Notes under the pieces: generated by a model
Database searches by the model: none
Told to the model about the DNA's origin: nothing
Seen by the model: the letters and a program-made list of their open reading frames with translations, nothing else
Made by a program: the position numbers and the translations under genes
Shown: positions 10,157-30,367 of the stretch, piece after piece
How positions within the stretch are numbered: the stretch's first letter is position 1
Layout of the letters: the number at the start of each line of letters is the position of its first letter
Source: Chitinophagales bacterium
Lineage (GTDB): Bacteria > Bacteroidota > Bacteroidia > Chitinophagales > JADIYW01
Direction: 5' to 3'
Assembly: GCA_019694955.1 (NCBI GenBank)
Contig: JAIBAX010000043.1
Span: forward strand, 1-41,498
DNA length: 41,498 nt

Positions 10157-11224
10157 ATGAACAATTTATCAGATAGTAAAATTTATGTAGGAAATATTTT
10201 TGGTAGCAATCACTACAATTATAGGCAATTATATTACGCTTATTTTCAAAAGTTACCCAATGTTATTTACCTAGAAAACATTAACGGAGAGAAAGCCTCC
10301 AAAAAGTTCATTGAAAAATTTAGTGCATGCATCATTAACATCTACCAAGAGGTTGATTACAAACCAAGAACGAAAAAGTTTGATCTTGACGATATGTATG
10401 TCGTACTCAATAATGAAATTATCATCTATTTCACATTAAGCTATGTGTACATTTACTGCGCCAATGAGCCAACCGAGTATCGAGTGTATATTGATTTTAT
10501 TACAAAGTTTAAAGAACGCAACAAACGAAATCCACTGGAAATAAATATCATAACCTTTAATGATGGCTTATGCATTCGCTCCATGGAAATCAAACGCACT
10601 AAACTGGATATAAATCTCTTTTATGAGGATGATTTTAAAGAAGTAGATCAGGTCATTCAATCCAGGCTTAATAAGAAAAATGACAAAGGAATCGTTCTTT
10701 TACACGGATTGCCGGGAACAGGAAAAACAACTTATTTGCGTTACTTGATGGGAAAGATAAAGAAGAGAGTATTGTTTATTTCGCCGGAAATGGCAAACTC
10801 TATAACCAATCCTCAGTTTATCCAACTTTTAATCAATAACTCAAATTCAGTATTGGTGATTGAAGATGCAGAAAACATCATCATGGATAGGCGATTAAGT
10901 TCAGGTTCGAGCGTTTCTAATTTGTTGAATATCAGTGATGGATTGCTTTCTGACTTTCTGAACATCCAATTGGTTTGCACCTTCAACCATCCTTTGACAA
11001 TGGTAGATGAAGCACTGATGAGAAAAGGAAGGTTGATTGCAAGGTATGAGTTTGGAAAATTAAGTAAAGAGAAAGCACAGCGTTTATCCAATCATCTTGG
11101 ACATACAAGAGAAATTGACCAAGCGATGACGATTGCGGAAATCACCCACCCTGATGCAAAACCTTGTGTTGAAAAGAGAGAAAGGAAAGTTGGCTTCCAA
11201 TTGAATTACATGAATAACAATTAA
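10157..11224 (+). CDS. Classic-clade AAA+ ATPase with an unrecognised ~190-aa N-terminal domain, translationally coupled to rtcB
   Basis: Walker A GLPGTGKTT, Walker B VLVIEDAE, second region of homology CTFNHPLTMVDEALMRKGRL. Its stop TAA (11222-11224) overlaps the rtcB ATG (TAATG). Confidence 0.8.
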   Translation: MNNLSDSKIYVGNIFGSNHYNYRQLYYAYFQKLPNVIYLENINGEKASKKFIEKFSACIINIYQEVDYKPRTKKFDLDDMYVVLNNEIIIYFTLSYVYIYCANEPTEYRVYIDFITKFKERNKRNPLEINIITFNDGLCIRSMEIKRTKLDINLFYEDDFKEVDQVIQSRLNKKNDKGIVLLHGLPGTGKTTYLRYLMGKIKKRVLFISPEMANSITNPQFIQLLINNSNSVLVIEDAENIIMDRRLSSGSSVSNLLNISDGLLSDFLNIQLVCTFNHPLTMVDEALMRKGRLIARYEFGKLSKEKAQRLSNHLGHTREIDQAMTIAEITHPDAKPCVEKRERKVGFQLNYMNNN

Positions 11225-12645
11225 TGGAGATGGCAAAGTATAGAATTACCGCACGTGAATTGAGGGTACTAGGTTACCCGGAATCACCCGCCATCTCAGT
11301 AGCCTTGGAGGTCGCGAAAAAACATTATAAGAAAGTCGACAAACAGCAGGTGTTCGACGTCTTACAACAAGTTCTTTTACATCCTGATAAATTTTTAGGA
11401 GATGATGTTCTCGGAAAGATTGCTGTCAAACTCATTGAACCGGAGGAACAAGAGCTGACCACTTTAACTGAGGGCGTTAGATTCAAAGTATATGGTGCAT
11501 CATTTGTTGATGGAGGGGCGCTGGCACAGATGGAAACTGCTACAAAACTACCGATAGCAGTTGCCGGCGCCTTAATGCCGGACGCACACCAAGGGTATGG
11601 ATTACCGATTGGCGGAGTACTTGCTACCGATAATGCTATCATTCCTTATGGGGTTGGTGTGGACATCGGTTGCAGAATGAGCATGACCATCTTGGATATT
11701 CCGGTAACGTTCTTTGAAAAACAGCAACAACAGTTCAAACGCTCATTAGTAGAACATACCTTGTTTGGTGCAGGCAATGGGTTTAAAGGCAAGAAGCTGA
11801 CAGATCATGAGATTTTATATCATGAAACCTTTGGCATCACACCCTACTTACGCAACCTGAATGACAAGGCAGTGGCACAGCTGGGTACTTCTGGAGGTGG
11901 CAATCATTTTGTCGAATGGGGTACGATAGAAATCCTTCAGGAAGATGAACAACTAAATCTTTCCAAAGGGAAATACCTAGCACTACTCTCCCACTCCGGA
12001 TCACGTGGATTAGGTGCCAGTATTGCCGGATACTATACGAAGATTGCTAAAGAGCAGCTGCGACTGCCACGAGAAGTCGGCAATTTGGCATGGCTGGACT
12101 TAAATAGCGAGGAAGGTATGGAATATTGGTTGGCGATGCACCTTGCCGGAGATTATGCAAAAGCCTGTCACGATGTGATACACAGCAAGCTGACATCGGC
12201 AATGGGTGCGCAGGTGCTGGCAAAAGTAGAAAATCACCACAATTTTGCATGGAAGGAAAGGGTGTATGGGAAAGAAGCGATTGTTCATCGGAAAGGTGCT
12301 ACGCCTGCTTCCAACAAAGAACTGGGGATCATTCCGGGATCAATGACAGCACCAGGTTTCTTAGTAAAAGGTAAAGGGAATCCGGAAGCCTTAATGTCCG
12401 CATCTCATGGTGCCGGAAGAAAGATGAGCCGTAAAACTGCCTCCGAGTCATTTACACACCATGCCTTAAAGAAAATGCTCAACGACCATGGCGTCACCTT
12501 AATCGGTGGTGGTTTGGATGAAGCACCGGGTGCATATAAAGACATCCATCAGGTGATGAAAGCGCAGGAAGATTTGGTAGAAGTATTGGGAAAGTTTCAA
12601 CCCAAAATTGTGCGGATGGCGGATGATGGCAGCAAAGAAGATTAA
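11224..12645 (+). CDS. rtcB: RNA-splicing ligase RtcB (3'-phosphate/5'-OH RNA ligase) with a ~60-70-aa N-terminal extension
   Basis: Hallmark RtcB motifs: LMPDAHQGYGLPIGGV, GVDIGCRM, GGGNHF, HSGSRGLG, HNFAWKE, ASHGAGR. Confidence 0.9.
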   Translation: MEMAKYRITARELRVLGYPESPAISVALEVAKKHYKKVDKQQVFDVLQQVLLHPDKFLGDDVLGKIAVKLIEPEEQELTTLTEGVRFKVYGASFVDGGALAQMETATKLPIAVAGALMPDAHQGYGLPIGGVLATDNAIIPYGVGVDIGCRMSMTILDIPVTFFEKQQQQFKRSLVEHTLFGAGNGFKGKKLTDHEILYHETFGITPYLRNLNDKAVAQLGTSGGGNHFVEWGTIEILQEDEQLNLSKGKYLALLSHSGSRGLGASIAGYYTKIAKEQLRLPREVGNLAWLDLNSEEGMEYWLAMHLAGDYAKACHDVIHSKLTSAMGAQVLAKVENHHNFAWKERVYGKEAIVHRKGATPASNKELGIIPGSMTAPGFLVKGKGNPEALMSASHGAGRKMSRKTASESFTHHALKKMLNDHGVTLIGGGLDEAPGAYKDIHQVMKAQEDLVEVLGKFQPKIVRMADDGSKED

Positions 12646-12647
12646 AA

Positions 12648-12687
12648 TCAACCTCGAGGGTTGGCTGCAACCAACCCTCGAGGTTGA
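12648..12687. repeat. Perfect 40-bp palindrome TCAACCTCGAGGGTTGG-CTGCAA-CCAACCCTCGAGGTTGA, 3 bp after the rtcB stop. It belongs to a repeat family also seen at 30368-30392 and 36484-36622.
   Basis: The 17-nt arms are exact reverse complements; the loop is CTGCAA. Confidence 0.85.
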
Positions 12688-29393: not shown

Positions 29394-29408
29394 ACATATT
29401 GTTTGAGG

Positions 29409-30320
29409 TTAAAATTCGATTAGTCCCTGATTGACGTTGAAGCAAAATATGCCTTCATCGTACCACATCTTGCAGACTTGCAGTCGGTCATCAACGGCGA
29501 AAAGTACATTATAATTCGGCAAAATTTGTTCGTTTAAGATTTCCGACTTAATGATACTGTCTTTGCGGTAGTCTCCGGTTTTTCGCATCAACAACTGGCA
29601 ATCTTTTATTCCCGTATGTTGTTCAATCCACTTCAAGGATACTTGCTTGTATTTATCTTCTCTTCCGGAAACAAAGATAATGGTGTATTTTATTGCTAAC
29701 GGCACAATAACTTCCACCACAGGTATATTGGGCTGATCTGCTAAGATTTCGGCTTCTTCCGGGTTAAACATATCTCTATTCGTGATACATAATGTACCAT
29801 CGAGGTCGCAGAGGACGGCATAGGGTTTCTCAGGCTGAAAAGGTTGCTGTTTAGCACGGTGTGGGCGGTCTGTTTTTGGTCTATCAGAAAAATCAAAAGA
29901 TTGCACAAGGTGCTTGACGCGGTCAAATCCTGACCGTATTACACCCAAGGGTACTTTTCTGGTTCTTTCTTGGTTGCGCTCTAAAAGTTCTTCCAATGGC
30001 ACTTCGAAGACCTTAAATTTAATGTCTGCAAGATGATTAAACCGTTGGATAATCTCGTCTAAATATTCTTTTTTTGTATGGGTGTTGTCGATGAGCAAGT
30101 TTTTGCCCTTTGCTAATGCTGTACCCATCATTTTATAGGTTATTTCCGTAAGGAGGTCTTCATCATAAAATTCCATTTGCTCAGAAAAGCGCAGCATTTT
30201 TCTAAGATCGTCGCGATTTATCCTAAAGACATCGTGGAATTTTGCATAATATTCGGCAAACGTAGATTTCCCCGAGCAAGGACTTCCTATTAATACCAAT
30301 ATTTGAGGTGCTTTCTTCAT
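29409..30320 (-). CDS. Phage-T4-type polynucleotide 5'-kinase/3'-phosphatase (Pnk: N-terminal P-loop kinase plus C-terminal HAD phosphatase). The ATG at 30320 (MKKAPQILVLIGSPCSGKST) is preferred over 30332.
   Basis: MKKAPQILVLIGSPCSGKSTF...INRDD resembles T4 Pnk MKKIILTIGCPGSGKSTW...INRDD. HAD motif I VLCDLDGTL. C-terminus RKDSIIKSEILNEQILPNYNVLFAVDDRLQVCKMWYDEGIFCFNV resembles T4 [45 protein letters not shown]. Confidence 0.88.
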   Translation of the reverse strand: MKKAPQILVLIGSPCSGKSTFAEYYAKFHDVFRINRDDLRKMLRFSEQMEFYDEDLLTEITYKMMGTALAKGKNLLIDNTHTKKEYLDEIIQRFNHLADIKFKVFEVPLEELLERNQERTRKVPLGVIRSGFDRVKHLVQSFDFSDRPKTDRPHRAKQQPFQPEKPYAVLCDLDGTLCITNRDMFNPEEAEILADQPNIPVVEVIVPLAIKYTIIFVSGREDKYKQVSLKWIEQHTGIKDCQLLMRKTGDYRKDSIIKSEILNEQILPNYNVLFAVDDRLQVCKMWYDEGIFCFNVNQGLIEF

Positions 30321-30367
30321 ATTGCAAACCATTCATTTTGTGGTGCGAAAATAGGAAATCCATCTGT

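Follow-up and report, generated by a model that had tools for sequence, protein, structure and literature searches.

The 41,498-nt window analysed here is a whole contig (JAIBAX010000043.1, assembly GCA_019694955.1) of a Chitinophagales metagenome-assembled genome, and it carries two RNA-repair cassettes. Cassette 1 (10157-15539, plus strand) encodes an AAA ATPase, the RNA ligase RtcB, a predicted structured RNA, an Rnl5-type RNA ligase and an SPFH/Band-7 protein, while cassette 2 (26914-30332, minus strand) is a compact operon with the gene order Pnkp1-Hen1-Rnl. The best explanation, to which we give a probability of about 0.75, is that these are two independent accessory RNA-repair modules of described kinds, with some 11 kb of unrelated housekeeping genes between them. 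A preliminary description of this DNA had named genes in this region, and Pfam, NCBIfam and PDB matches place every one of them at the positions it gave, including the three ligase families RtcB, Rnl5 and Pnkp-type Rnl and a RecQ gene (22882-24783) lying between the cassettes. Its reading of both cassettes as RNA-repair or counter-ribotoxin functions agrees with the literature for each module (PMC4411300; Burroughs and Aravind 2016, cited in bioRxiv 10.1101/312249), but it missed the non-coding RNA of cassette 1.

Judged by sequence, cassette 2 adds a further member to a system already characterised. Its first gene, Pnkp1 (29409-30332, minus strand), encodes a T4-Pnkp-like 5'-kinase with a HAD 3'-phosphatase (PF13671 and PF25109). 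It is followed on the same strand, after a 15-nt spacer, by Hen1 (28119-29393), a 3'-terminal 2'-O-methyltransferase with a Hen1_N domain (PF22032, E 6.8e-50), and, 5 nt further on, by Rnl (26914-28113), a stand-alone RNA ligase of the Pnkp-ligase type (PF16542, E 1.3e-23). All three proteins matched, near full length, the solved Pnkp1/Hen1/Rnl repair complex of Capnocytophaga gingivalis (PDB 4XRP/4XRU): Pnkp1 aligned with chain A of 4XRP over residues 6-303 (E 1.1e-50), Hen1 with chain C over residues 1-423 (E 3e-122) and Rnl with chain B over residues 11-399 (E 8.7e-119). Pnkp1 also matched T4 Pnkp (1LTQ) over nearly its whole length (E 1.5e-32), Rnl matched the ligase domain of C. thermocellum Pnkp (E 1e-14), and the methyltransferase part of Hen1 scored 47 bits against TIGR04074. 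The translations contain the P-loop GSPCSGKS and the HAD motifs DLDGT and DDR in Pnkp1, LDIGCG, EVIEH and HEDH in Hen1, and KYMG and EGVMVK in Rnl. All components of the Pnkp1-Rnl-Hen1 system were recognised, Hen1 with both its Hen1_N and its Mn-dependent 2'-O-methyltransferase domain. As in the 4XRP system, a T4-like P-loop kinase is combined with a HAD 3'-phosphatase, not with the metallophosphoesterase of classical bacterial Pnkp, the Pnkp-type ligase stands alone and Hen1 has an N-terminal domain.

Module 2 should work like the Capnocytophaga complex. There, repair of colicin-cleaved tRNA requires all three proteins, and 2'-O-methylation of the junction makes the repaired tRNA withstand re-cleavage (PMC4411300). 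By the same chemistry, the Pnkp1 kinase would add a phosphate to the 5'-OH end and the Pnkp1 phosphatase would take off the 2',3'-cyclic or 3'-phosphate; Hen1 would then methylate the terminal 2'-OH and Rnl would seal the nick, leaving a junction that the same transesterifying ribotoxin could no longer cut. From orthology we infer that the proteins of cassette 2 would form a heterohexamer and repair ribotoxin-cleaved tRNA with 2'-O-methylation of the junction. For both modules, the enzyme activities and natural substrates given here are likewise those that we infer from the protein families. The preliminary description had allowed that the proteins might be non-catalytic, which is at odds with the catalytic motifs of RtcB, Rnl5, Pnkp1, Hen1 and Rnl, all five of which read as intact.

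The genes of cassette 2 are arranged differently from those of the type organisms. In Capnocytophaga, hen1 is reported to lie far from the pnkp1-rnl operon, and in 2015 the system was known from about 10 species, mainly oral Capnocytophaga (PMC4411300). Here the host is a Chitinophagales metagenome-assembled genome, the proteins are about 44-46% identical to those of Capnocytophaga, and the three genes are contiguous, in an order that is kept in the nearest homologues (L092, L093 and L094). Cassette 2 thereby carries the structurally solved 'repair with immunity' complex beyond a few oral Capnocytophaga to environmental Bacteroidota, and shows its three genes as one operon. The Pnkp1-type Hen1 family is rare and patchily distributed, with 322 detectable relatives (in Flavobacterium, Apibacter, Taibaiella, Tannerella and others), and the next best relative of the window Hen1 has 56% identity. 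When plasmids were searched by tblastn with Hen1, the matches were classical Hen1 next to a large gene annotated as AAA that is probably a fused Pnkp. In L094 (8068-12478), the operon has an extra T4 Rnl1-like ligase gene (PF09511) between Pnkp1 and Hen1.

Cassette 1, by its gene content, fits a system of RtcB, a Band-7 protein and a tRNA-like RNA predicted by Burroughs and Aravind in 2016. In bioRxiv 10.1101/312249 that work is cited for RtcB genes that neighbour a Band-7 gene and a tRNA-like RNA, the latter a prediction, and the 'band 7-associated tRNA' is described as lacking experimental validation as of 2018. In the window, the SPFH/Band-7 gene forms one co-directional cluster with RtcB and Rnl5, and a tRNA-like RNA is predicted in the same cluster.

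The cassette opens with a classical AAA ATPase of 355 aa (10157-11224, plus strand; PF00004), whose stop codon overlaps the RtcB ATG by 1 nt, indicating translational coupling. Its best PDB sequence matches were Bcs1, Afg2 and YjoB. Foldseek aligned its AlphaFold model (pLDDT 74) with Bcs1 and YjoB over most of the length (E 1e-13 to 1e-11), with modest TM-scores of 0.38-0.48 and an rmsd of 8-12 Å. The alignment takes in the classical AAA domain as well as the N-terminal one, but sequence identity is 14-18%, the window protein has no membrane anchor and its gene is coupled to RtcB. Sequence and model together thus point to a Bcs1/YjoB-like ATPase, and we do not claim membership of the Bcs1 family proper. 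An archease-like RtcB activator was considered for the N-terminal domain and rejected when the fold search led to Bcs1 and YjoB. The family is large and well conserved (more than 6000 homologues of 355-358 aa). The adjacency of AAA and RtcB genes recurs in Filimonas lacunae, where a Band-7 gene lies just upstream, and in Arachidicoccus; a tblastn search of plasmids with the AAA protein found only distant AAA genes, none adjoining RtcB. To our knowledge, RtcB cofactors other than archease are poorly known, and a conserved pairing of a Bcs1-like AAA with RtcB is one of the features that cassette 1 adds. In the Arachidicoccus locus (L091, 12734-13901), AAA-RtcB is followed at once, on the other strand, by a DUF3037 and HipA_2 (HipA-like kinase) gene pair, a possible toxin-type neighbour there that is absent from the window.

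The RtcB of the window (11224-12645, plus strand, 473 aa; PF01139, E 2.7e-81) belongs to the RtcB family. In an alignment with Pyrococcus horikoshii RtcB, the metal-binding Asp, Cys and His residues and the guanylyl-His motifs are all conserved (MPDAHQGYG, DIGCRM, GGGNHF, HSGSRG and SASHGAGR). The protein scored below every NCBIfam equivalog cut-off and therefore represents a distinct subfamily, and an exact-sequence look-up returned no record of it. RtcB joins 3'-phosphate or 2',3'-cyclic-phosphate ends to 5'-OH ends. The second ligase (13250-14278, plus strand; PF21189, E 1.3e-36, and PF09414, E 1.4e-22) is of the ATP-dependent Rnl5 type, exemplified by DraRnl of Deinococcus radiodurans and NgrRnl of Naegleria, which need 3'-OH and 5'-phosphate ends. 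With these it shares an N-terminal OB domain and a C-terminal nucleotidyltransferase domain, here with the motifs KLDG, EGIVIR and FKV, and it scored 184.4 bits against the TIGR02306 equivalog model (cut-off 151.15). It differs from them in lying inside a Band-7/RtcB cassette, a new context for this ligase.

The last protein of cassette 1 is a soluble SPFH/Band-7 ('slipin') protein of 367 aa (14436-15539, plus strand; PF01145, E 9e-27). Its open reading frame (ORF) opens at 14358, and the start at 14436 is backed by homologues, of which there are at least 7973, mostly of 365-367 aa. A strong intrinsic-terminator-like hairpin found by the terminator scan (15596-15627, plus strand, 12 bp and T7) closes the cassette. 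Elsewhere, this protein family keeps company with a range of RNA-repair genes. It adjoins RtcB at L088, L090 and L098, and Chryseolinea and Subdoligranulum are among the genomes in which it does so; it adjoins a Pnkp1-like kinase-phosphatase in Runella. In E. coli its immediate neighbour is RlaP, the 'RNA repair pathway' nucleotidyltransferase, whereas Chitinophaga pinensis has RlaP some 2.6 kb downstream of Band-7 and on the opposite strand, and in Sediminibacterium Band-7 is near Ro60. A divergent WYL regulator is common at these loci. The 422-aa protein that follows the Pnkp-like gene in Runella had no Pfam or PDB match, and a scan of viral contigs with Band-7 was negative.

The 600-nt gap between RtcB and Rnl5 holds the predicted structured RNA, about 190 nt long (12697-12887, plus strand). 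We defined its parts by comparing seven Bacteroidota loci, and each covariance-bearing part was modelled without the window sequence: model R2, for the 5' domain, was trained on six other Bacteroidota loci, and model R1, for the tRNA-like part, on nine modules from other loci. The 5' domain (12697-12771, plus strand) reads GACCGGAUGAG, hairpin P1, CCAUAG, hairpin P2 and UAUGCUG, against a consensus among the loci compared of GACCRGAUGAG, P1, CCAUAG, P2 and UAUGCUG. R2 matched it with 40.4 bits (E 7.9e-11), the next match in the window scoring 10.4 bits. In 1.52 Mb of fetched DNA, R2 found only its training loci, the window, the related contig L081 and a weak outlier (L067, 17.7 bits, E 0.034). 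Covariation supports the helices: in P1 and P2, 94% of cells were paired, compared with 35-52% when slid, and both sides had changed in 6 of 11 pairs.

The 5' domain runs into a circularly permuted tRNA-like module (12770-12853, plus strand), identified by R1 and a T-loop motif. Its parts, all on the plus strand, are a canonical T-arm (GAAGG-UUCGAAU-CCUUC, 12780-12796), a loop-capped acceptor-like hairpin (12798-12816), a D-arm-like GCC-GUGGUU-GGC (12818-12831) and, recognised by eye, an anticodon-like hairpin, AAUGAU-CUUAAAA-AUCAUU (12835-12853), with the 7-nt loop CUUAAAA. The top R1 match in the window (12770-12832; 19.9 bits, E 0.003) abuts the R2 match. In the tRNA-like module, 98% of cells were paired, compared with 27-45% when slid, with changes on both sides in 10 of 14 pairs. 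The T-loop motif GGTTCRAWTCC occurs twice in the window, in this RNA and in tRNA-Ser, against 0.1 expected; it stands upstream of Band-7, on the same strand, in all Band-7 loci examined up to that point, and was not found in the Arachidicoccus locus, which has AAA-RtcB only. A weak hairpin with a U-run detected by the terminator scan (12866-12894, plus strand) possibly marks the 3' end of the RNA; GAAG...CUUC hairpins trail the tRNA-like module in other loci too, but without U-runs.

The RNA was recognised only through comparison between loci: ARAGORN did not detect it as a canonical tRNA, Rfam returned no family at the gathering or at a permissive threshold (E <= 10), and its single-sequence fold was unremarkable (z = -0.04). 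Related loci carry the modules in tandem, and some of these, in L082 and L086, score high enough to pass the Rfam tRNA gathering threshold. The RNA is a family absent from Rfam with defined covarying helices, which cassette 1 adds to what is described. An 80-aa ORF (12709-12951) was discounted as a gene because it lies over the conserved RNA, gave no Pfam match and is uncalled in L081. In an E. coli record (STEC639, L087, 6471-8925), slipin and RlaP genes lie between a DUF3811 gene and lysC, preceded by an unannotated 530-nt gap with a T-arm (TGGGTTCGATTCCCA) and a capped hairpin, in which R2 finds nothing.

A close parallel is the Ro60/YrlA/RtcB system of Salmonella and other bacteria. Its Y RNA, YrlA, is encoded next to RtcB and mimics a tRNA in circularly permuted form, the acceptor stem being closed by a loop (bioRxiv 10.1101/312249). 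Cassette 1 has in common with it a permuted tRNA mimic, a closed acceptor, RtcB and a presumed scaffold protein. It differs in that the window has no TROVE/Ro60 domain or gene and that its RNA had no Rfam match at E <= 10, so that it does not qualify as a Y RNA. The permutation point also differs, with a full anticodon-like hairpin after the D-arm in the window and an anticodon stem built from 5' and 3' parts in YrlA, and the 5' domain GAUGAG-P1-CAUAG-P2-UAUGCUG is specific to Band-7 loci. In the Sediminibacterium locus (L096, 1378-7524), a WYL regulator, Ro60 (TROVE) and a 1.85-kb non-coding stretch are followed by Band-7, an S24 peptidase and RNase T, and the non-coding stretch holds four T-loop-containing RNA modules and a genuine tRNA. 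R2 matches for the 5' domain occur there only beside Band-7, while two further T-loop motifs lie nearer Ro60, and RNAs of the Y-RNA type and of the Band-7 type may stand side by side at this locus.

Cassette 1 is thus a variant architecture of a computationally predicted system, marked by the AAA ATPase, the added Rnl5 and a single permuted module with a 5' domain. As in the predicted b7a-tRNA system, RtcB, SPFH/Band-7 and a tRNA-like RNA are encoded together, and the comparison loci add other ligases, end-healing enzymes and nucleotidyltransferases in modular fashion. The differences are the Bcs1-like AAA coupled to RtcB, the position of Rnl5 between the RNA and Band-7, the absence of a WYL regulator and of RlaP from the cassette, and an RNA made of one module (T-arm, capped acceptor, D-arm and anticodon arm) where other loci have tandem modules. 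Part of these variant features may already have been described in Burroughs and Aravind 2016. The cassette is a compact natural example of the Band-7/tRNA-like-RNA repair system, which is not known to have been validated so far.

Two non-coding elements accompany cassette 1. Upstream of AAA-RtcB lies a candidate regulatory leader or set of small RNAs (9751-10150, plus strand), which holds a 43-aa ORF (9755-9886, plus strand) and has two terminator-like hairpins on the same strand, the first from the terminator scan (9911-9932) and the second, seen by eye and in the fold (10108-10140), 17 nt before the AAA start codon. A segment of about 200 nt folds with z = -3.0. Positions 9751-10050 are 96-100% identical to L089, a related metagenomic contig, as against 44-84% for the flanking DNA and the AAA coding sequence. 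The leader had no Rfam match, and a viral-contig scan with it was negative. An attenuator, a leader of riboswitch type or small RNAs are all possible; attenuation of AAA-RtcB transcription by its two terminator-like hairpins is a speculative possibility, and a putative attenuator-like leader is a further addition of cassette 1. In Arachidicoccus, a hairpin and T-run likewise stand just before the AAA gene. The second element is a conserved box, G(C/G)AGATACCG, with a hairpin (13087-13115, plus strand), about 160 nt upstream of the Rnl5 start. The box recurs in L082 (9766), L084 (9797), L086 (7756), L096 (5832) and L098 (5770), there 169-245 nt upstream of the Band-7 start, so that it precedes the first ORF after the tRNA-like RNA in each case, Rnl5 in the window and Band-7 elsewhere. 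The GATAC/GTATC hairpin is present in the window and in L084. The box may be an operator or an RNA element.

At the level of chemistry, the RtcB of cassette 1 would directly join cyclic-phosphate or 3'-phosphate ends to 5'-OH ends, and nicks with 3'-OH and 5'-phosphate would be sealed by Rnl5. More speculatively, a role as scaffold or cofactor, like that of Ro60 and Y RNA, might fall to the SPFH protein together with the permuted tRNA-like RNA, with the Bcs1-like AAA ATPase remodelling that assembly or its substrate. If RNA and SPFH protein did scaffold ligation, this would parallel Ro60/Y RNA and help to explain the bacterial pairing of RNA ligases with tRNA mimics. Carried further, cassette 1 could be one ribonucleoprotein machine, in which an RNA of two parts, the new 5' domain with its two hairpins and a tRNA mimic whose permutation point is the variable loop, organises a soluble SPFH assembly, broken tRNA-like substrates are presented by this assembly to RtcB and Rnl5 as ligases of opposite end chemistry, the AAA ATPase loads or recycles it, and the leader provides control. 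This proposal is tentative, and we doubt that it holds in full; if true, it would make the cassette a Bacteroidota counterpart of Ro60/Y-RNA/RtcB and provide a new ATPase cofactor for RtcB.

A rival reading is that damage repair is not the primary role of cassette 1. It would instead be a ribonucleoprotein machine dedicated to processing or maturing one RNA, either the tRNA-like RNA it encodes or some specific RNA of the cell, perhaps through ligation or circularisation, or else a decoy or sensor for anticodon nucleases, with the AAA ATPase and an SPFH cage controlling the assembly of the RNA. Across phyla the RNA keeps a tight linkage to Band-7 genes, it has retained an anticodon-like 7-nt loop with U33-like and purine-37-like positions, permuted tRNAs of other organisms need ligation to mature (bioRxiv 10.1101/312249), and the ultraconserved, terminator-containing leader before AAA-RtcB suggests tight control. 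The partner genes found elsewhere (RlaP, Pnkp-like, Ro60 and WYL), however, all point to generic RNA end-healing and sealing. Arachidicoccus, moreover, has AAA-RtcB without Band-7 and without the T-loop motif, and RtcB and AAA are therefore independent of the RNA. We regard a dedicated maturation, decoy or sensor role as distinctly improbable.

We compared nine Band-7 or AAA-RtcB loci (from Chitinophaga pinensis, Runella, a Sphingobacteriaceae genome, E. coli, Subdoligranulum, Filimonas, Arachidicoccus, Sediminibacterium and Chryseolinea) and two independent Pnkp1-Hen1-Rnl loci for any sign that the cassettes belong together. None of the nine had Hen1 or a Pnkp-type Rnl within 6-10 kb on each side, and neither of the two had RtcB, Band-7 or RecQ, so that co-location was seen in 0 of 11 independent loci, a small set. 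In the loci compared, RecQ and the other intervening genes were never associated with either cassette. The preliminary description had presented one unusual concentration of RNA-repair functions; this found no support, each cassette occurring alone, in differing housekeeping contexts, in the 11 loci. Because the arrangement recurs nowhere else, clustering beyond chance cannot be shown, and the co-location of the two cassettes is probably not meaningful.

Several observations weigh against two independent modules of these described kinds. The R1 match to the tRNA-like module, taken alone, is only moderately significant (E 0.003), and the 11-kb proximity could reflect a clustering of accessory or conflict genes. 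More specifically, Rnl5 acts on 5'-phosphate and 3'-OH ends, yet neither a kinase nor a phosphatase is encoded in cassette 1 and the sole end-healing enzyme of the window is Pnkp1, which hints at cooperation. The cassettes could then form one repair regulon held together by selection, with Pnkp1 healing ends for both Rnl and Rnl5, and with RtcB, Rnl5 and Rnl jointly dealing with every end chemistry in one response to stress or ribotoxins. Elsewhere the two functional themes are indeed found together, as in Runella, where the gene directly after Band-7 encodes a Pnkp1-like kinase-phosphatase (31% identity), and the extra T4 Rnl1-like ligase recruited by the L094 operon indicates that such modules accrete ligases. 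Assuming a genome of 4-5 Mb, we estimate that two random loci would fall within 12 kb of each other less than 1% of the time, but this estimate is post hoc, many windows having been scanned. The cassettes also lie on opposite strands, 10 unrelated genes and a tRNA gene separate them, each is self-contained elsewhere, and none of the 11 loci unites them; a shared regulon is unlikely on this evidence.

Relatives of the window bear on whether the cassettes are accessory. A search with the acyl-CoA dehydrogenase gave best 80 species representatives of 48-68% identity, none of which carries any window neighbour gene within 10 kb of it, a result that says nothing on island versus core. More informative were two metagenomic contigs. 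L081, at 97.6% nucleotide identity, has the same AAA-RtcB-RNA-Rnl5-Band-7 arrangement and lacks two low-GC ORFs with signal peptides that follow cassette 1 in the window. L089, whose acyl-CoA dehydrogenase has 97% protein identity, keeps the AAA gene and has lost the equivalent of about 11575-15139, with RtcB and Band-7 left only as frameshifted fragments. Because of this deletion with remnants, cassette 1 is dispensable accessory DNA that was present at the site in the common ancestor. In a comparison with L089 aimed at relaxed selection on AAA after the loss of RtcB, dN is 0.15 for AAA and 0.02 for neighbouring genes; dS is saturated and the ratio undefined. For cassette 2, clusters at 90% identity of Rnl, Hen1 and RecQ contain the window proteins only, and those of several flanking genes add Logan sequences, which hints that cassette 2 is absent from sister strains. 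The preliminary description had raised the possibility that these are universally conserved core genes, and with cassette 1 mostly deleted in L089 and the Hen1 family rare and patchy this can be set aside.

The two ORFs missing from L081 (15792-17478, minus strand) are adjacent, have a GC content of 0.27 and no Pfam match, are 31-47% identical to their L089 counterparts and form a fast-evolving indel next to cassette 1. Synteny with L089 ends at about 20,497, where a repeat-rich 630-nt spacer (20497-21075) has repeats with an 8-nt period over 20506-20741, a 38-nt direct repeat with exact copies at 20637 and 20874, and a 47-nt repeat at 20550 and 20913; beyond this point L089 has a methyltransferase gene that the window is without.

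Palindromic repeats are scattered through the window. A double copy with the core CAACCTCGRGGGTTG (12646-12690) lies between RtcB and the RNA, and a single copy (30370-30390, core match at 30373-30387) lies 38 nt upstream of the Pnkp1 ATG and overlaps the stop codon of the upstream hydrolase; further copies (36483-36497 and 36584-36621) are away from both cassettes. The family core CAACCTCGGAGGTTG has 10 strand-matches where 0.01 would be expected. Its SGAGG form was found in none of 101 other loci, and L081 carries the CTCGAGGG core form of the window. The preliminary description took these palindromes for borders of the cassettes; with one double copy inside cassette 1, one copy upstream of Pnkp1 and two away from both, they are dispersed REP-like intergenic elements of the lineage and not cassette borders. 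They may break short-read assemblies.

These features could be drawn together differently, with the region as cargo of a degraded mobile or defence island whose old boundaries are marked by the palindromes and indels. The stretch from AAA to the ORF at 16582-17478 does vary, through the L089 deletion, the two low-GC ORFs missing in L081 and the elevated dN of AAA; L089 synteny breaks at the repeat-rich spacer; and at 90% identity the protein collection has relatives of several flanking genes but none of Hen1, Rnl or RecQ. The window, however, turned up no gene for an integrase, transposase or relaxase and none of phage type, no direct repeats were found flanking either cassette, and the viral-contig scans were negative. 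The palindromes also occupy unrelated intergenic sites, and cassette 1 stands at the same chromosomal site in three related lineages. GC3 (0.38-0.50) is within the range of neighbouring genes, and the GC and codon-usage check proposed in the preliminary description revealed no sharp step at either cassette. By genes, flanking repeats and composition the region does not classify as a mobile element or genomic island, yet the segment varies among close relatives. We consider a degraded island very improbable, and two independent accessory modules remain our preferred explanation.

A Pfam domain scan of window ORFs of at least 80 aa found no toxin, antitoxin, toxin-antitoxin, integrase or transposase domains, as the preliminary description had said. 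PADLOC gave only weak AAA matches (at most 22 bits) among the 10 proteins scanned (AAA, RtcB, Rnl5 and Band-7 of cassette 1 and six proteins of unknown function or with DUF domains only), and on this basis, with no toxin-type Pfam domain found in those ORFs, neither cassette was assigned to a known anti-phage defence or toxin-antitoxin system. The genes between the cassettes encode an acyl-CoA dehydrogenase, a DUF1697 protein, a glycosyltransferase, RecQ, a nucleoside phosphorylase, an epimerase and three proteins without a Pfam match above threshold, two of them with a signal peptide; the tRNA-Ser gene among them (21673-21758) is the sole tRNA that ARAGORN and Rfam find in the window. Hen1 and neighbouring proteins correspond to NCBI entries MBX7227313-MBX7227324.

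The remaining genes of the window encode type IX secretion substrates, a nitroreductase, a carboxyltransferase, a hydrolase, LysM and NfeD proteins, a histidine kinase and similar proteins. NfeD genes are usually paired with an SPFH/stomatin gene. The NfeD1b-type gene here (33850-35205, plus strand) has no adjoining SPFH gene, and the only SPFH gene of the window is that of cassette 1, 18 kb off. At the other end (1-5992, minus strand), two tandem paralogues of about 1000 aa each are type IX secretion substrates; they repeat in a register of 3013-3016 nt with 71-76% identity, and the first of them lies almost at the contig end.

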